Shown here in pieces: positions 4,383-60,434 of a DNA stretch of 64,000 nucleotides (positions within the stretch are counted from its first letter, which is position 1; each line of letters opens with the position of its first letter). The notes beneath the pieces were generated by a model. That model was given only the letters and a program-made list of their open reading frames with translations, did no database searches and was not told the DNA's origin. Origin of the DNA: a virus; the IMG/VR virus record IMGVR_UViG_3300034166_000560, one strand, 5' to 3'. The position numbers and the translations under genes are program-made.

Positions 4383-4390
4383 TATTTATA
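4383..4390 (-). promoter_or_regulatory. T4-type late promoter TATAAATA upstream of gp18
   Basis: Exact TATAAATA on minus strand in the intergenic gap; gp33 is present in the window. Confidence 0.8.
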
Positions 4391-15010: not shown

Positions 15011-15018
15011 TATTTATA
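15011..15018 (-). promoter_or_regulatory. Late promoter TATAAATA for the fibre/adhesin/oxygenase operon
   Basis: Exact TATAAATA about 30 nt upstream of the ATG at 14982. Confidence 0.8.
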
Positions 15019-48656: not shown

Positions 48657-48664
48657 TATTTATA
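48657..48664 (-). promoter_or_regulatory. Late promoter TATAAATA overlapping the gp33 stop
   Basis: Exact consensus. Confidence 0.7.
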
Positions 48665-48878
48665 TCGGAAGGCGTGCTCCACGCTTAAGAATATTCAAAT
48701 TCTCGGCTTCTGCCTGGATTTTAGCTCTCATAGCTGGATCCTTTTTAATCCAGTATGCAGCCGTCTCGATCTCCAGATTGTTCTTTTCGCACCAGAAAAC
48801 CACGGCGTCGATATATTCGATGTTCTTTTCTCGACAGAGCTTTTCTACTTCCTCTACGAAGCCTGAATTTTTAAGCAT
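48660..48878 (-). CDS. gp33: Late transcription coactivator
   Basis: YIDAVVFWCEKNNLEIE, KIQAEAENLN, RLPI; near gp59 and gp32. Confidence 0.88.
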   Translation of the reverse strand: MLKNSGFVEEVEKLCREKNIEYIDAVVFWCEKNNLEIETAAYWIKKDPAMRAKIQAEAENLNILKRGARLPI

Positions 48879-49043: not shown

Positions 49044-49493
49044 TTAGTCCTTAATTGTGATCGTCGTATATTCACCTTTGGTCATTTTATAGAGAGTAGC
49101 AGAATTAGTGGGAGATAGACGAACGCAGCCGTGAGAAGCAGGACGCCCAAGAGCACCAACATGAGGAGTAGCATGGATAGCATATCCTCCAGAAAAGAAA
49201 ATAGAATTTGGCATAGGAGCGTTATCGTATTTCTTACTGTAGTGCATAAGCTGGTAAGAATATGGATGAAACGATCCCGTAGGAGTATAATACCCTTTAC
49301 GGGCAGTAGAGACAGGCCATTGGTCAATTAACTCTCCATCTTGAAGAACTGTCATAGTCTGATGACGTTTCGAAACAATAATATCGTAATCTGCTTTTAC
49401 TGGAGTAGAGAAGAACATAGATACAAGAACCAATAAAACTCCAACAACCATAAGTATAACTCCTGCTATGTTAGCAACTCTATCGTTTATCAT
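49044..49493 (-). CDS. L,D-transpeptidase (YkuD family) with N-terminal membrane/signal segment
   Basis: WPVSTA, TPTG, PMPNSIFF, YAIHAT..LGRPASHGCVRL catalytic His/Cys motif. Confidence 0.92.
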   Translation of the reverse strand: MINDRVANIAGVILMVVGVLLVLVSMFFSTPVKADYDIIVSKRHQTMTVLQDGELIDQWPVSTARKGYYTPTGSFHPYSYQLMHYSKKYDNAPMPNSIFFSGGYAIHATPHVGALGRPASHGCVRLSPTNSATLYKMTKGEYTTITIKD

Positions 49494-49696
49494 GAAAGAT
49501 ACCCAAGAATAGCGCCAATAGGGCCAACGAAAACACCAATACAGCGAAGAATGAACTTAGCTGTAATTGGATTATCCATTGTGTTCCAGATTGAGATAAT
49601 GTTCATCACCCAACCTACGGCAAAAACGAGCCAGATTGCGATTAGCGTAAGATAATAGCCAATACCATAATCTTCATGACCATAATGACGTGCCAT
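49490..49696 (-). CDS. Small two-TM membrane protein
   Basis: Two hydrophobic segments; GGAG RBS. Confidence 0.7.
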   Translation of the reverse strand: MARHYGHEDYGIGYYLTLIAIWLVFAVGWVMNIISIWNTMDNPITAKFILRCIGVFVGPIGAILGYLS

Positions 49697-49714
49697 AATA
49701 TACTCCAGTTAGAA

Positions 49715-49791
49715 TGGCGGTCCCGGAAGGATTCGAACCCTCGACCTTGGGAGTAGAAATCCCCTGCTCTATCCAGCTGAGCTACGGAACC
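49715..49791 (-). tRNA. tRNA-Arg(TCT)
   Basis: GGTTCCG/CGGGACC acceptor stem, D-loop AGCTGGATA, anticodon loop TT-TCT-AC, GGTTCGAATCC T-arm, encoded CCA. Confidence 0.92.
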
Positions 49792-49800
49792 ATTATTAGT

Positions 49801-49829
49801 ATTATAACCTAGCAGAATTGAAAAGGCAA
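49801..49829 (-). promoter_or_regulatory. Sigma70-type promoter for tRNA-Arg
   Basis: TTGCCT-17 nt-TATAAT. Confidence 0.7.
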
Positions 49830-50133
49830 GTTGTTTCTGTTTCTAGGGACAACTTGCGAACCCCAATGGATCATGCAGCTAGTGCATAAGCTCCAAATGA
49901 TGCATCATTATCGTTTGCATCTACGTTTCGCCTTTGGTCTCCTTACGACCTTACTGAATCCTGTCGAACCTGAATCGCCCCCATCAAAGATACACCGATT
50001 ATCATATCCCATCGGCTAGCACGATATAAGACCACACAAACGACCTCGGTGGCTGATGTATCTATGGTGGAGGCGGTGGGAACTGCCCCCACGTCCAAGA
50101 AACCTATGTTTCGTCTCTCAACGACCTCGGCAA
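49824..50133 (-). ncRNA. ssrA: Two-piece (circularly permuted) tmRNA, alphaproteobacterial type; tag ANDNDASFGAYALAA
   Basis: Acceptor piece ends GACGTGGGGGCAGTTCCCACCGCCTCCACCA (50065); spacer; coding piece starts GGGGGCGATTCAGGTTCGAC (49982), giving a G3:U70 Ala stem; tag frame 49918..49871; 3' hairpin GCAAGTTGT..ACAACTTGC; outer ends approximate. Confidence 0.93.
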
Positions 50134-50136
50134 ACT

Positions 50137-51702
50137 TTATTTATAAATGTTATCTCTAAGGTATTCGTAGTGATTGGGAAGAGTTTTAATGTATTGTTTC
50201 AACGCTGCTTGATGATTAAGCCAACTATATTTGATATCATGTAACTCATTAGCTAATTTTGGGTTTCGTTTCATATCGATATTATGATCCATCTTAGTAA
50301 CAAAACTGTAATTACCTGCCGCCAGAACTCTATGATAACTAAAGTTGCCTTCTTTCATTTTCAATTTTTCTGGATCAGTTGATTGGTTTTGATCATAAAG
50401 ATCTCTAAACAATTTACTAAAATAATCCCCTTCATGGTTATGATTCATAGCATTGGTTCTATGCTTCCAATAAGGAGAATCTTCTCTTTGAGAGAGAAAA
50501 TATTGCGCTGTTACCCAATCTTTGGCTTCTGAGGCTTCTTTAATTACGTAATGGTTATAATATTCTCTATCAAAGTTTTTTACATGACAATCCGTATTAA
50601 GGAGGATACGAGCAATATTCTCAATCATAGATTGAGTCAAAAATAACCCTGTAGATCTCAGAGGTCCAATGAACGCACAAGAAAGCCCAACTGCAATAAC
50701 ATTTTTATACCAAGGAGCCTTTCTAACTCCTGGAGTGAATTTCATAGAACGAAATTCTAAACCGTCCGCCCTTGAACCATATCTTTTTCTTATACTTTCA
50801 CGTAGTTCCTCTTTAGCCGATTCTTCGTTGGTATGATTACTGCTATAAACATAGCCAGAACCAATTCTATCCCAAATTGGAATATTCCACTCCCATCCAC
50901 TATCTAACGCTACACAATCTGTGAAACTAACCATTTCTTCTTTTTTACATTCGTAAGGAATATTGGTCGCAATCGCTCTATCGTTTACAAGAACTTCTGA
51001 AAAATCTATTAATCCTATTTTCAACCCTTGTTCTAATAGAATAGATCTAAACCCAGAACAGTCAATATAAAGATCTGCAGTTAGTGGTCCATTCTCATTA
51101 GTCTCTAAACATGTGATACCATTGTCATCAGTCCGAATAGCATAAATGTCATCGATGATATGTTTAACACCGTTCGGAATAGCGACAAGGTCTTTTAACA
51201 TCAATCCAAATTTATAAGCGTCGAAATGATACGCTTTTTCTATATTAGGATTCCATTTCATTGGTCCTGGTTTGTCAGTATATTTGTTTTGAAGAACCAT
51301 ATGATAGTTGTCATCAAAAAATTCAGGAAAATCAAAAGGCTGGAATAAATCTGGATATTGATGACAAAGGTTATAGAATAATTTAATATCTCTCATAGGG
51401 ACTGGAGGCGTAATCCCCTTAGTCAAATCATAAAAACTTTTACCCTTCTGATAAAAGTCTGTTAGCCTAATGGTTGTTTTATAAACAGCGTCACACTTTG
51501 GCATCCAAATTTGTTCTGGGATACCAAATGGTTTCATAAACCTATTGATGTTTACTAAACTTGATTCTCCAACGCCAATAATTGGAACGTTTGTGGACTC
51601 TATCAGAGTAATGTTAACATTAGGTACATTTTTAGACAAAAGGGCAGCAGTCATCCAACCAGATGATCCGCCGCCCACAATCATAATACTTTTAACTTTC
51701 AT
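50137..51702 (-). CDS. Flavin-dependent tryptophan-halogenase-family protein (divergent active site)
   Basis: GGGSSG, GVGES, AVYK, YHFDA, DCSGF, WEWNIP; FIGPLRSTG in place of FxEPLESTG. Confidence 0.88.
   Translation of the reverse strand: MKVKSIMIVGGGSSGWMTAALLSKNVPNVNITLIESTNVPIIGVGESSLVNINRFMKPFGIPEQIWMPKCDAVYKTTIRLTDFYQKGKSFYDLTKGITPPVPMRDIKLFYNLCHQYPDLFQPFDFPEFFDDNYHMVLQNKYTDKPGPMKWNPNIEKAYHFDAYKFGLMLKDLVAIPNGVKHIIDDIYAIRTDDNGITCLETNENGPLTADLYIDCSGFRSILLEQGLKIGLIDFSEVLVNDRAIATNIPYECKKEEMVSFTDCVALDSGWEWNIPIWDRIGSGYVYSSNHTNEESAKEELRESIRKRYGSRADGLEFRSMKFTPGVRKAPWYKNVIAVGLSCAFIGPLRSTGLFLTQSMIENIARILLNTDCHVKNFDREYYNHYVIKEASEAKDWVTAQYFLSQREDSPYWKHRTNAMNHNHEGDYFSKLFRDLYDQNQSTDPEKLKMKEGNFSYHRVLAAGNYSFVTKMDHNIDMKRNPKLANELHDIKYSWLNHQAALKQYIKTLPNHYEYLRDNIYK
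50138..50145 (-). promoter_or_regulatory. Late promoter TATAAATA directly upstream of tmRNA
   Basis: Exact consensus overlapping the halogenase stop. Confidence 0.7.
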
Positions 51703-51753: not shown

Positions 51754-51876
51754 TTAGTGGCACGGTCTATTAGAACTGTCCCGTACAATGCACTTACCGA
51801 TGGTCGCCAACTCATTACAACCAGTGACGCCCAAACTAAGAAACACCAATGCAATTGATAGATATACTTTCTTCAT
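51754..51876 (-). CDS. Small lipoprotein (40 aa)
   Basis: Manual translation MKKVYLSIALVFLSLGVTG-CNELATIGKCIVRDSSNRPCH; lipobox; ATGA overlap with the upstream gene. Confidence 0.65.
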   Translation of the reverse strand: MKKVYLSIALVFLSLGVTGCNELATIGKCIVRDSSNRPCH

Positions 51877-52097
51877 CCTAAGATCCTTTTTATATCATCT
51901 AGAGTCCCGATATAATGACCATTTCGAAAGGCTACTGGACGAGCTTCGTCGATACCAGCATGCCTGATGAATGCGGCCATGGTAGAATACATAGCAAAGT
52001 ATTTCGGTTCAATACCTGTTTTCTGTATAATATACTGAGATAATTGATCGGTTTCTTCGTTATAAACTTGACCGATAACTGACCATCTATCTGACAC
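51873..52097 (-). CDS. Hypothetical protein, glutaredoxin-like C-terminus without CxxC
   Basis: RPVAFRNGHYIGTLDDIK resembles the glutaredoxin P..F..G.YIG..DDL motif. Confidence 0.55.
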   Translation of the reverse strand: MSDRWSVIGQVYNEETDQLSQYIIQKTGIEPKYFAMYSTMAAFIRHAGIDEARPVAFRNGHYIGTLDDIKRILG

Positions 52098-52098
52098 G

Positions 52099-52356
52099 TT
52101 ACTCTCCTACACCACCTTCTATATTAGGTTCATGATTTTCCAACTGAACACCGTTTATTGAAAACCACTCATCAGAACCTTGACGCTGATACTGGATATC
52201 CTGCATAGGAACCATTACCATTTCCTTGGTCTGTGGGTGAACCATCATCTTCTGAAATACAACCATTCGCAAATCAACGATTGGATTCTTTTTATTTAAT
52301 CCTCCCACTGGAAGTCCACTAGCGGCGACAGCGCCATCTGGTCCTAGAATACTCAT
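52099..52356 (-). CDS. Hypothetical protein
   Basis: ORF coupled to neighbours. Confidence 0.6.
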   Translation of the reverse strand: MSILGPDGAVAASGLPVGGLNKKNPIVDLRMVVFQKMMVHPQTKEMVMVPMQDIQYQRQGSDEWFSINGVQLENHEPNIEGGVGE

Positions 52357-52721
52357 GTCTTTTGTCCTTTATACTTTTCAAGTAGATTCGAGAGAAACTC
52401 AATAGCTGAGTCATTAAATGTTACATCGTTTAGAATACCGGTAACGCAATATTGCTTTGCCTTCAGCGCATTGCCATCCGAAGCCTTATCATATTCAACG
52501 ATATACAGATGACGATCCTTAGACATCATTGCTTCGTTAATCTTACCATTCTTTTCGCCATTATAAAGAGTAACCAACGCCTTCTCGTCGATCATCTTCA
52601 TCATCTCTGCATTAGGATAGCATTTTAAATCTTCCGCCTTGGCCATATTATGGACAACCATAAACCCTAGCGCAAAGAAAAAAATAGCAATCAAACTTTC
52701 TTTAGTTCTGCTCATTGTCAA
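52353..52721 (-). CDS. Secreted/periplasmic hypothetical protein
   Basis: Signal peptide ending AKA-E; two Cys. Confidence 0.65.
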   Translation of the reverse strand: MTMSRTKESLIAIFFFALGFMVVHNMAKAEDLKCYPNAEMMKMIDEKALVTLYNGEKNGKINEAMMSKDRHLYIVEYDKASDGNALKAKQYCVTGILNDVTFNDSAIEFLSNLLEKYKGQKT

Positions 52722-58418: not shown

Positions 58419-58830
58419 CTATCAACCTTAATACATTTTCAATGTCGTCTTGATCAAATTTCGTAATACGTATCTCGTATTTATCTGGCTCTTCAAATAT
58501 CTTGTTGGTGTCTTCGTATCTACCTTCTTTGATAGTATCCATCCAGATAGTTATGTCTGGTTGGAAGAAACTTCTATACAGATTTCTTGGACAAACAAAA
58601 TCACAAATAGCAATAATATCATTCTTACAACAAATCTCAGCATTCTGGGTCATACGACACAACTGACGAAATCTACCGATGTCTGAGAAATCCCAATCAT
58701 CGTAGAATTCTCTCATCTCATCGCCATTGTATAAAGCGACTAATTCGTTTTTATCGTTAAGGACATCAAACAATTTGTTAGCAAATGTGGTCTTCCCGCT
58801 TCCAGGAAGTCCAGTCACAAGTATTTTCAT
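58393..58830 (-). CDS. P-loop kinase, adenylylsulfate-kinase (CysC)-like
   Basis: GLPGSGKT, DWDFSDIGRFRQ, DFVCP, EDTNKIFEEP. Confidence 0.82.
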   Translation of the reverse strand: MKILVTGLPGSGKTTFANKLFDVLNDKNELVALYNGDEMREFYDDWDFSDIGRFRQLCRMTQNAEICCKNDIIAICDFVCPRNLYRSFFQPDITIWMDTIKEGRYEDTNKIFEEPDKYEIRITKFDQDDIENVLRLIDAKRHICD

Positions 58831-60434
58831 CAGTCTGTACCGTGGATATGTTCTTTTAGATAATCATACATTGTAGGACAATCTTTGACTATTTCCTTCC
58901 ACTCAGCCTTTTTCTTATCTAGGTTATCAGCAGCTAATTTATATTTTTCTTTCCACTCTTCTTTGCATATATCATTATACGCATACAAAGAATTGTTATC
59001 AGTTGGAAAATAATTCATACCAGAAGAAATAAATGGTATACCGCCCAAACCAGTAAAACCATAATTTTCCATTCTAGCGTCTGCAGCCCTAGTAAAACCA
59101 CTTACTTCGCTTGTGTCTACCTTCTTTGTTATTGATCCAAAGTCTCTTTTACCGATATCTCTCCAATATGGAGTATCGTCTCTGTGAGACAAAGCGTAGT
59201 GTAATGCAACGAAATCTGCAAAAGCCTTGAAGTATCTTCTACAAGCATAATTATAAACGTCAATGTCCCACTGGCTCACATAACCTTCTGAATCTCTACC
59301 AAGAATACGAATCATTCTCATCAAAAATTCATGAATGCTAAGAAGTCCATTACTCTCAAGCGGCTCAATGAATCCCGCAGACAATCCAATAGCTGCTACG
59401 TTCTTGACCCAAATGCGCTCGTGGATACCAACACGTGATTTGATATTCTTAAATTTAATTCCTTGGTTATTAAAATCCATCTCGTCATCAAAATGACCAG
59501 TGCTACGGAGATATTGTTTAAACTCTTCTAGAGCATCTTCATCACTGATGTATTTGTCTGAATAAACATATCCTGTTCCCAAACGATTCCACAATGGGAT
59601 TGTCCACACCCAACCATTATTAATAGCGTGGCAGTTGGTATATGTAATCATTTCCTTACGCTTATCAACATAAGGAATCTGAGCAGCCCAAGCAGAATTG
59701 TTTGGTAGAATATCGCTCATAGAAATGAACGGTTCGTTTAGAGCTCCAGCTAAAAGAATAGATTTGAAACCAGTGCAATCAATGAACAAATCGGCGGTGA
59801 CTTTTTCGCCATTATCTAGCTGAAGAAAGTTGATACCGTTCTCATCATCAAAATCAACCATCTTTACTTCAGCTAGTATATTCTTAACACCACGTGGAAT
59901 AGCGTATTCTGTTCTTAACCAATTAGCAAACTTGACAGCATTAAAATGATAAGCTGTGTCTTTTCTGAAATTGAAGTTTGGTAATACACCTTCTGAGTTT
60001 TCAAAAATTTTATTTTCATTAACCAACGCCATGATTGGACACATACAATCTGCATAATCACTATTAGGCGTTTCTGGGTAAAGGAACTTTTTAAAATACC
60101 AATCATTTAATACAGCAACATTACCATCAGTATTGGTAGAACCAAACGGATAATGAAACGCTCCAGCGCCTTTTTTATAAAAGTCCTCGAATCTAATAGA
60201 AAGTTTATACGTTGCATCTGTAATTTTCATGAAATCTTTGTCTTCGATCTCAAGAAGTTTTAACCAAGAATTAATAAAACCTAATGTTGACTCTCCAACA
60301 CCAACAGTTGGAATATTTGGCGATTCAATTAGAGTAATATTTTTATTAGGAAAAACTTTGATCAAAGTGGCTGCAGCCATCCATCCAGCTGAACCACCAC
60401 CAACGATGACAATCTTATCAATTTTCTTAGTCAT
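58830..60434 (-). CDS. Flavin-dependent tryptophan-halogenase-family protein
   Basis: GGGSAG, GVGEST, ATYK (catalytic Lys), DCTGF, WVWTIP, FIEPLESNG, RDDTPYW. Confidence 0.92.
   Translation of the reverse strand: MTKKIDKIVIVGGGSAGWMAAATLIKVFPNKNITLIESPNIPTVGVGESTLGFINSWLKLLEIEDKDFMKITDATYKLSIRFEDFYKKGAGAFHYPFGSTNTDGNVAVLNDWYFKKFLYPETPNSDYADCMCPIMALVNENKIFENSEGVLPNFNFRKDTAYHFNAVKFANWLRTEYAIPRGVKNILAEVKMVDFDDENGINFLQLDNGEKVTADLFIDCTGFKSILLAGALNEPFISMSDILPNNSAWAAQIPYVDKRKEMITYTNCHAINNGWVWTIPLWNRLGTGYVYSDKYISDEDALEEFKQYLRSTGHFDDEMDFNNQGIKFKNIKSRVGIHERIWVKNVAAIGLSAGFIEPLESNGLLSIHEFLMRMIRILGRDSEGYVSQWDIDVYNYACRRYFKAFADFVALHYALSHRDDTPYWRDIGKRDFGSITKKVDTSEVSGFTRAADARMENYGFTGLGGIPFISSGMNYFPTDNNSLYAYNDICKEEWKEKYKLAADNLDKKKAEWKEIVKDCPTMYDYLKEHIHGTD

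Follow-up and report, generated by a model that had tools for sequence, protein, structure and literature searches.

On its minus strand, the analysed DNA of a lytic T4-like phage very probably carries a functional ssrA gene, which encodes a two-piece tmRNA of the alpha type. The DNA, called the window in the following, comprises 64,000 nt of the virus record IMGVR_UViG_3300034166_000560. A permuted tmRNA with the tag ANDNDASFGAYALAA was called by ARAGORN on this strand. Two Rfam models scored above their gathering scores, RF04321 (tmRNA_permuted) with 91.5 bits against 47 (E = 2.5e-16) and RF01849 (alpha_tmRNA) with 81.6 bits against 50 (E = 1.5e-20). The best model within its Rfam clan was alpha_tmRNA. 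The first-pass annotation had listed a T arm, CGCCTCC-ACCA, an 82-nt spacer, GGGGGCG and a tag frame, read from the letters of the minus strand. Every one of them was found at the positions given there (Table 1), and the feature set with its coordinates matches a tmRNA far beyond chance. The identification as a phage-encoded, circularly permuted, alpha-type tmRNA is thus supported by the ARAGORN call with the same tag, by both Rfam scores and by the conserved fold.

The gene order is permuted. The acceptor 3' half comes first, followed by the intervening segment and by the acceptor 5' strand with the coding part. A complete tRNA-like domain is present, with a 7-bp acceptor stem including G3:U70, a T arm and an encoded 3' CCA. 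The tag frame has an Ala resume codon, a hydrophobic-AA end and a stop codon. The ends of the intervening segment, AGATACA/TGTATCT, are complementary and belong to a terminal stem of ~10 bp (AGATACATCA.. / ..GGTGTATCT).

Table 1 Features of the tmRNA gene, its promoter box and its neighbours (positions in the window)
Feature	Position	Strand	Details
Flavin (tryptophan) halogenase-like ORF	50137..51702	-	Upstream of tmRNA; stop codon overlaps promoter box
Late-promoter-type box TATAAATA	50138..50145	-	Overlaps TAA stop (50139-50137) of the halogenase-like ORF
Acceptor piece, ~68 nt	50065..50132	-	P2 3' strands (three-part helix), T arm, acceptor 3' strand, ACCA; from Rfam alignments, RNAalifold and pair counts
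T arm	50092-50076	-	Within acceptor piece
Acceptor 3' strand CGCCTCC	50075-50069	-	Within acceptor piece
Encoded ACCA	50068-50065	-	CCA 3' end at 50065
Intervening segment, 82 nt	49983..50064	-	Removal during processing predicted
Coding piece, ~160 nt	49821..49982	-	Acceptor 5' strand, D-loop analogue, P2 5' strands, tag frame, 3' hairpin
Acceptor 5' strand GGGGGCG	49982-49976	-	7-bp acceptor stem with CGCCTCC, including G3:U70
Tag reading frame	49871..49918	-	Resume codon GCA 49918-49916, ANDNDASFGAYALAA, stop TGA 49873-49871
Tag-end hairpin, 4 bp	49886-49883 with 49877-49874	-	Directly before stop; covaries
Candidate pseudoknot	TTGGGG 49866-49861 with 3' hairpin loop bases 49848-49843	-	Weakly supported
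3' hairpin GCAAGTTGT / ACAACTTGC, conserved loop CCCTAGAAACAGAA	49826..49857	-	Compensatory changes in 9/9 stem pairs
tRNA-Arg(TCT)	49715..49791	-	Adjoins tmRNA gene; ARAGORN/Rfam
gp33 late-transcription coactivator	48660..48878	-	PHROG 254, E = 1.4e-15; 35% identity to Melnitz gp33
Downstream block gp33 - ORF - gp59 - gp32	gp59 48158-47577; gp32 46721-45825	-	Synteny with relatives, Melnitz and HTVC008M
TATAAATA before sheath gene	4383-4390		Late structural gene, same genome
TATAAATA before fibre gene	15011-15018		Late structural gene, same genome

The fold was examined in 16 related viral sequences aligned with MAFFT; register shifts in this alignment blur some of the pair counts. RNAalifold recovered the T arm, the acceptor stem, the stem of the intervening segment, three helices between the pieces, the tag-end hairpin and the 3' hairpin. 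Pairing was found in 91.9% of the cells, compared with 42-50% for slid partners, and double (compensatory) changes in 30 of the 57 pairs, compared with 10-13 for slid partners. None of 500 shuffles equalled these values. The acceptor stem including G3:U70 is invariant in all 16 sequences, and the T arm, in which one pair covaries, is paired in 100% of cells. For the stem of the intervening segment nine out of ten pairs covary; its interior varies among the relatives in sequence and length (65-89 nt). Three P2 helices join 50132-50111 to 49948-49929, with 90.6-98.4% of cells paired and double changes at 7 of 14 pairs. Less clear is the helix P2a beside the tRNA-like domain (81% paired, with a problem of alignment register). 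For the candidate pseudoknot 72.5% of cells were paired, a count blurred by the MAFFT register shifts, and G-C is changed to A-U at one pair in three sequences. Differences in tag length are multiples of three in 15 of the 16 aligned rows, and the tags of the relatives are conserved at the ANDN start and at the hydrophobic-AA end. Altogether, the comparison indicates that the tmRNA gene is real and conserved.

The position of the gene is conserved as well. Among the sequences compared, this applies to a wide clade of T4-like phages including the cultured phages Melnitz and HTVC008M. In most of the 16 relatives gp33-gp59-gp32 follow downstream of the tmRNA, with gp32 identities of 54-88%. A homologue of the halogenase-like ORF was not present in the closest relatives within the stretches compared. 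The adjoining tRNA-Arg(TCT) is preceded by a sigma-70-like promoter of its own (TTGCCT-17-TATAAT, 49829-49801) that overlaps the 3' hairpin of the tmRNA. This hairpin is not a canonical terminator, and none was found downstream of the tmRNA gene. The neighbours of the locus are replication and late-transcription genes, with no defence or anti-defence gene linked to it.

The tmRNA gene is predicted to sit behind a late-type promoter. Transcription would start at about 50131-50132, and the first paired RNA base follows 6-7 nt downstream of TATAAATA. A sigma-70-type promoter was not called at this box (50145-50138), and there is no -35 hexamer. With six copies in the window and 6.6 expected, the count of TATAAATA alone is not above chance. 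All six of these boxes are on the coding strand. Of the 15 copies in the whole genome, eight lie within 80 nt upstream of an ORF start on the same strand, among them those before the sheath and fibre genes; going by how common such positions are, ~6% would be expected. The motif (N)ATAAATA stands in the same columns and with fixed spacing in 14 of the 16 aligned sequences. Among 114 viral loci with permuted tmRNAs, 55 have the motif as well, 55-75 nt ahead of CCGCCTCCACCA; 31 of these 55 have a near-consensus -35 in addition and so an overlapping early and late promoter. The sigma-70 -35 hexamer TTGACA is located 16-18 nt upstream of the box in ten of the 16 relatives and also in Melnitz, where early and late promoters thus overlap, whereas this phage has the late box only. 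Thus, exclusively late transcription would hold for no more than this phage and a few relatives. The T4 late promoter proposed in the first-pass annotation is supported by the conserved box, its fixed spacing and the encoded gp33, but not as a late-only promoter of the clade. As TATAAATA overlaps the stop codon of a coding gene, read-through from the upstream operon could also yield tmRNA.

Two-piece tmRNAs of T4-like phages were published in 2022 (PMC9004378), and a curated database contains 79 unique phage tmRNA sequences (PMC11915505). Hence, the novelty attributed to the locus at first was overstated. The gene is a solid but ordinary new example of a kind already published for related phages. 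The gene of Methylophilales phage Melnitz (MZ577097.1 45984-46436; Buchholz et al. 2022, PMC9004378) is comparable in many respects. Melnitz is a T4-like myophage, and its tmRNA, likewise permuted and of the alpha type (RF04321, 113 bits), has an ANDN...YALAA tag. The gene lies just upstream of gp33 in the full order tmRNA-gp33-gp59 and has TATAAATA at the equivalent place; a phage SmpB is absent there, too. In contrast, TTGACA is found 17 nt upstream of its box and was read by its authors as an early promoter (PMC9004378), and its intervening segment is much longer than the 82 nt of this phage. Furthermore, a glutamine riboswitch follows the tmRNA of Melnitz, while no Rfam match to it was obtained here at E <= 1 in 49400-50500. 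The two phages are distant (terminase ~50% identical, gp6 ~33%). Melnitz is marine with an OM43 host, whereas the phage described here groups with freshwater pmoC-type phages.

Two further phages of the T4 superfamily exceed the gathering score of RF04321, Pelagibacter phage HTVC008M (NC_020484.1 145161-145370) with 90.6 bits and Stenotrophomonas phage DLP6 (KU682439.2 102838-103059) with 136.8 bits. Both tmRNA genes fall in unannotated gaps of their records. In HTVC008M the tmRNA is likewise followed by gp33, but the acceptor stem is GGGGGTG / CACCTCC, the tag is short (ANFNEYALAA) and no obvious TATAAATA is present. DLP6 differs in having a gammaproteobacterial host.

According to PMC9004378, which cites Keiler, Shapiro and Williams (2000), the cellular two-piece tmRNA of alphaproteobacteria was first described in Caulobacter. 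The phage gene shares with this cellular form the order of acceptor piece, intervening segment and coding piece, G3:U70, the ANDN start of the tag and the ..AACAGAA loop in the 3' hairpin. Nevertheless, cellular tmRNAs of the presumed host group reach 301-306 bits with RF01849, compared with 81.6 bits for the phage gene. The phage RNA is without two P2 sub-helices and ~40 nt after the tag, its intervening segment has 82 nt instead of ~24 nt and its tag ends with ALAA instead of AVAA. Unlike the cellular gene, it has a predicted phage late-type promoter.

An alphaproteobacterial host had been deduced from the tmRNA type in the first-pass annotation. This reasoning is unsound: permuted tmRNAs are carried by Melnitz, which infects OM43, and by DLP6, which infects Stenotrophomonas, and thus an alpha-type tmRNA does not identify such a host. 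The conclusion itself is probably right. In the closest complete relative (G001, 168,653 bp) pmoC is 92-93% identical to genes of alphaproteobacterial methanotrophs. Because this relative carries pmoC, the freshwater lineage probably infects methanotrophs, and an alphaproteobacterial methanotroph is the likely host. The pmoC-phages of freshwater lakes have genomes of 159-527 kb with a GC content of 32-44% and up to 29 tRNAs (Chen et al. 2020, PMC7674155). The phage fits this group in genome size, GC content (~39%) and number of tRNA genes (27). It differs in that no pmoC was detected in its 146.6-kb record (86% complete) by Pfam search or tblastn. Two other assignments were considered. A cyanophage, suggested by gp32 with ~64% identity to cyanomyophages, was rejected, as psbA is absent and the tmRNA is of the alpha type, and a marine pelagimyophage was rejected on the pmoC of the closest relative.

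SmpB was searched for in this record (86% complete), in two relatives (91% and 100% complete) and in Melnitz, HTVC008M and DLP6. None was found in this record or in the five other tmRNA-bearing phages, so the tmRNA would need the SmpB of the host. The dependence on host factors assumed before is in line with this result.

From these features we infer how transcription, processing, charging and tagging may proceed and how the phage may benefit. Late transcription by the gp55/gp33/clamp-dependent RNA polymerase would start ~6-7 nt after TATAAATA, which would make the first transcribed base the first base of the outermost helix between the two pieces. The precursor would fold with the intervening segment as a stem beside the acceptor stem, and the 82-nt segment would be cut out by tRNA-processing enzymes of the host. 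Cleavage by RNase P at G49982 and 3' trimming, leaving the encoded CCA at 50065, would give two pieces held together by base pairing, the acceptor piece of ~68 nt and the coding piece of ~160 nt. This RNA may be charged by the host AlaRS via G3:U70 and delivered by host SmpB and EF-Tu to ribosomes stalled on broken mRNAs. Translation would resume at GCA and add ANDNDASFGAYALAA, and the C-terminal LAA would direct the product to degradation by ClpXP-type proteases of the host. Ribosomes would be kept free and amino acids perhaps recycled at a time when the host no longer transcribes and mRNA is broken down. Such a benefit fits the 27 tRNA genes of the phage. We assume full tmRNA activity despite the reduced architecture.

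A more specialised function is quite unlikely in our judgement. The phage tag could redirect proteins to another adaptor or protease, or the RNA could replace host tmRNA lost to defence nucleases or to phage shut-off. Consistent with this, the presumed host group has the tag ANDNYAPVAVAA (..YAPVAVAA) and the phage ANDNDASFGAYALAA (..FGAYALAA), the tags of the phage clade are diverse in the middle and mostly end with ALAA or RLAA, and host tmRNAs have a fuller architecture. However, the host group in this comparison is derived from the pmoC of a relative, and both tags have retained ANDN at the start and hydrophobic-AA at the end. For ssrA tags these two elements are expected to matter for recognition by proteases. 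The genes next to the locus, which serve replication and late transcription and include no defence or anti-defence gene, count against a specialised function as well.

The low covariance-model score relative to cellular tmRNAs could also point to a decoy or inhibitor, which binds host SmpB, AlaRS or ribosomes without completing tagging and dampens trans-translation of the host. As a precedent, a tag-less tmRNA-like RNA of mycobacteriophage DS6A was reported to inhibit endogenous E. coli tmRNA (PMC11915505). The phage described here has an intact tag frame, whose Ala resume codon and stop are conserved. Among the relatives, 15 of 16 differ in tag length only by whole codons, and the tag-end hairpin covaries. 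Because a decoy needs none of these features, they count against a pure decoy, and we regard it as very improbable.

A non-functional remnant of host ssrA from imprecise excision, or an attP-like fragment for integration into host ssrA, can practically be dismissed. In its favour, tmRNA genes often serve as integration sites, pieces of ssrA are found in prophages (PMC9004378; PMC11915505) and many of 118 viral contigs with permuted tmRNAs are without T4-like neighbours and may be prophage ends. However, this gene is complete, its position, fold and tag frame are kept across phages with gp32 only 54-88% identical, and no integrase was found in the phage, which has T4-like, lytic-type architecture. 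The integration-site reading was rejected on the missing integrase. A bacterial donor was not detected. In the presumed host family (151 genomes), BLAST found no more than 32 nt of the tRNA-like 3' half, in a single genome, and this exact 32-mer was absent from all 185,579 species genomes searched; both results also count against a remnant. A degenerate pattern gave 120 loci; of these, only a 5.7-kb contig binned as Flavobacteriales, which is probably a mis-binned phage, matches the tmRNA beyond the tRNA-like domain.

The preferred reading, a functional two-piece tmRNA working with host factors, leaves the current understanding of trans-translation unchanged. To the published marine examples it adds a freshwater lineage with a pmoC-carrying closest relative. 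The tmRNA type alone is an unsafe host marker, and several deposited phage genomes, such as those of HTVC008M and DLP6, leave the tmRNA unannotated. Going further, the tmRNA of the clade might be regarded as a streamlined, phage-adapted RNA for trans-translation rather than a borrowed host gene, since its 5' end is possibly set by a late or early and late promoter, the RNA is much reduced and the tag is unlike that of the host. We consider this unlikely, though worth stating. If true, the phage could reprogramme, late in infection, the set of tagged proteins or their degradation, and it could bypass the loss of host tmRNA. Among the methanotroph-infecting pmoC-phages, this tmRNA would also be the first to be noted; tmRNA and ssrA are not mentioned in the pmoC-phage paper and five of its supplements (PMC7674155). 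The conserved overlap of early and late promoters leads to a simple, testable prediction on the timing of expression across these phages. In general, the gene confirms that large T4-like phages have kept ribosome rescue repeatedly under their own control, alongside large sets of tRNAs.

The minus-strand layout read in the first-pass annotation as a permuted phage tmRNA (box, T arm, CCA end, spacer, GGGGGCG and tag frame) was matched exactly over the whole locus. ARAGORN and Rfam, both among the checks proposed with that reading, were positive. A permuted tmRNA with the tag ANDNDASFGAYALAA was predicted by ARAGORN, and the Rfam scores were 91.5 bits for tmRNA_permuted (RF04321; gathering threshold 47) and 81.6 bits for alpha_tmRNA (RF01849; threshold 50), the best model of its clan. 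Folding of the single sequence (z = -2.0) recovered the acceptor stem, T arm, intervening-segment stem and 3' hairpin.

Features of the tmRNA locus in the window, and pmoC gene of the closest complete relative, G001
Feature	Coordinates	Strand	Basis
tmRNA locus as read	50145-49821	minus	direct sequence reading
TATAAATA box	50145-50138	minus	direct reading
T arm	50092-50076	minus	direct reading
CGCCTCC-ACCA	end at 50065	minus	direct reading
Intervening segment, 82 nt, ends complementary	50064-49983	minus	direct reading
GGGGGCG; 7-bp acceptor stem with G3:U70	49982-49976	minus	direct reading
Tag frame GCA, ANDNDASFGAYALAA, TGA	GCA 49918; TGA 49873-49871	minus	direct reading
pmoC of G001	L257 1474-2238 = G001:C1:31450-32214	minus	PF04896 match

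In a pattern scan of IMG/VR, permuted tmRNAs with the same acceptor stem came up at no fewer than 118 viral loci; ANDN-type tags were found by ARAGORN in 81 of them. The closest among the loci listed, L072 (80% identity over 328 nt; tag ANDNDASFGVYALVA), belongs to a 100% complete record of 168,653 bp. The window sequence was aligned with 15 of these loci. RNAalifold, run on this alignment, recovered the T arm, the acceptor stem (its U:G pair invariant), a stem of 10 bp that closes off the intervening segment, and two hairpins, a small one at the tag end and the 3' one. In addition, three helices joined the 5' part of the acceptor piece to the sequence preceding the tag. With a candidate pseudoknot added, the structure comprised 57 pairs, which were counted with partners slid by 1-3 columns as control. 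The cells were paired in 91.9% of cases versus 42-50% for slid partners, and 30 of the 57 pairs had changed on both sides versus 10-13. In 500 shuffles, not one of five pairing measures came up to its observed value. The intervening segment, not conserved in its interior, ranged from 65 to 89 nt. Tag lengths differed by multiples of three in 15 of the 16 rows, and both tag start and tag end were conserved. The pairing and covariation counts, in-frame tag lengths and conserved tag ends thus indicate selection for fold and tag frame.

The phage is a T4-like myovirus. Its record (146,587 bp, estimated 86% complete) encodes sheath, large terminase, baseplate wedge proteins, gp32, gp59 and the late-transcription coactivator gp33; psbA, integrase and SmpB were not found in it. 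No close cultured relative was found. The terminase is 56-57% identical to those of Sinorhizobium phages phiM12/phiN3 and about 49-50% to those of cyanomyophages, HTVC008M and Melnitz, gp6 about 33-36% to all of these alike, and gp32 about 64% to cyanomyophages. Apart from the tmRNA the record holds 27 tRNA genes, 24 of them on one strand within 7.5 kb outside the window (G000:C1 30781-38253, G000 being the whole record).

Downstream of the tmRNA, no more than a few kb away, most of 16 relatives (gp32 54-88% identical to the window's) have gp33, gp59 and usually gp32. Cultured Melnitz has the same order tmRNA, gp33, gp59, and in HTVC008M gp33 likewise lies downstream. Within one branch of the T4 superfamily the tmRNA gene is hence a long-standing feature, passed on mostly by vertical descent, and no recent capture. 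RF04321 scored 113 bits in Melnitz, 90.6 in HTVC008M and 136.8 in Stenotrophomonas phage DLP6, and gave no match in phiM12, Cr30, S-ShM2, AG-345-L05 or Pseudoalteromonas phage XG4. The exact 32-nt tRNA-like 3' half occurred in none of the genomes of a 185,579-species bacterial collection, and across 151 genomes of the presumed host family BLAST hit nothing but those 32 nt, in a single genome. Both results fit a gene that is no recent capture.

Permuted tmRNAs also lie in unannotated stretches of deposited records, namely HTVC008M (NC_020484.1 145161-145370, L126) and DLP6 (KU682439.2 102838-103059, L252). Second, low-scoring tmRNAs with a phage-type tRNA-like domain and unusual tags were seen in Camelimonas fluminis (G006:C49:343-740, L173/L262; 112 bits, tag ANDNVDMGRALVA; normal alpha copy 288 bits) and Rhizobium rosettiformans (G007:C4:7579-7946, L195; 87.6 bits, tag AKYEASNDNVAFEDIRVAA; normal alpha copy 307 bits); they are probably prophage-borne. 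The best 'bacterial' match beyond the tRNA-like domain, L224 (CAYREL010000072.1, 5,665 bp, tag ANDNVASVDYALAA), is most likely a piece of a phage that was binned wrongly, since this short contig with an alpha-type permuted tmRNA sits in a Flavobacteriales bin.

An alphaproteobacterial host had been proposed from the tmRNA type. This argument is unsafe, because the hosts of Melnitz and DLP6 are OM43 and Stenotrophomonas, respectively, but such a host is likely on other grounds. pmoC was not found in the accessible 146,587 bp of this phage; G001 carries it (E = 1.4e-108), preceded by a fused TTGACT-17-TATAAATA promoter and by a structured leader with a T run at its end. G001 PmoC is 87% identical to a Methylosinus protein, 90-93% to PmoC of five bacterial genomes of the family containing Camelimonas, and about 60% to gammaproteobacterial types. 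These comparisons place the clade with the published freshwater pmoC-phages (PMC7674155), and on this evidence the host is likely to be an alphaproteobacterial methanotroph. From four of the five PmoC-matching genomes tmRNAs were recovered, with 301-306 bits, an intervening segment of 24 nt and ANDNYAPVAVAA as tag. Compared with these the phage RNA is clearly reduced and its tag end differs; the alpha-type 3' hairpin loop ..AACAGAA is kept.

Judged from sequence, the phage RNA is best explained as an ordinary trans-translation RNA, which would use SmpB, AlaRS, RNase P and proteases of the host. The reliance on host SmpB suggested earlier agrees with the search for an SmpB gene, which found none in this record or in five other tmRNA-bearing phages, one a 100% complete relative. 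A specialised function of the differing tag is possible. A role as decoy is unlikely, as the tag frame is conserved. A remnant or att site is excluded for practical purposes by the complete, covarying gene, its conserved genome position and the missing integrase.

The TATAAATA box is not over-represented in the window (6 copies, 6.6 expected). The informative feature is where the copies stand: all six lie on the coding strand, and 8 of 15 genome-wide precede an ORF start on the same strand by no more than 80 nt, those of sheath and fibre genes among them. (N)ATAAATA falls in identical alignment columns in 14 of 16 sequences, and the first paired base of the RNA follows it after 6-7 nt; of the 114 viral loci whose upstream sequence was long enough, 55 had a box 55-75 nt before CCGCCTCCACCA. 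A near-consensus TTGACA lies 16-18 nt upstream of the box in 10 of the 16 sequences of the alignment, in 31 of the 55 loci and in Melnitz, whose tmRNA promoter was interpreted as early by its authors (PMC9004378). Where T4-like phages lack MotA/AsiA, an early promoter overlapping a late one is taken to lead to middle or continuous expression (PMC2984593). Given the early/late overlap in most of the aligned sequences, the T4 late promoter of the first-pass annotation, in the sense of late only, would hold for no more than this phage and a few relatives. At the window promoter no -35 hexamer was found, and the box shares bases with the stop codon of the halogenase gene ahead of it; in L072 and the related locus L006, too, the box runs over an upstream stop codon. 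The best reading here therefore appears to be transcription at late times only, to which read-through from upstream may add.

Directly 3' of the tmRNA lies tRNA-Arg(TCT) (49715-49791, minus) with its own sigma-70-like promoter TTGCCT-17-TATAAT (49801-49829, minus; 10/12 matches), whose -35 hexamer is part of the 3' hairpin of the tmRNA (descending arm and tail). Because of this promoter, early tRNA-Arg and late tmRNA expression may be uncoupled. The gp33 ORF (48660-48878) ends within a second TATAAATA (48657-48664, minus), which stands ahead of the following ORF (PHROG 10499), the same late-box-on-stop-codon layout as before the tmRNA. Two tryptophan-halogenase-like genes (PHROG 2928) were seen at 50137-51702 and 58830-60434, both minus. 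The tmRNA-adjacent one looks like an insertion, since no homologue was found in the stretches fetched from L072 and L006, where homologues of ORFs farther off in the window are found no more than about 1 kb from the tmRNA: those of the 74-aa and 85-aa ORFs (51873-52356) in L072, those of the 85-aa and 122-aa ORFs (52099-52721) in L006.

Two-piece tmRNAs of T4-like phages were described in 2022, with 53 cases in 18,146 phage genomes (PMC9004378), and a curated database holds 79 unique phage tmRNA sequences (PMC11915505). The description of the pmoC-phages never mentions tmRNA (PMC7674155). Modestly new are the occurrence of a tmRNA among the pmoC-phages, the promoter ahead of it with its conserved spacing and early/late overlap, and a covariation-backed structure for the reduced phage form of this RNA.
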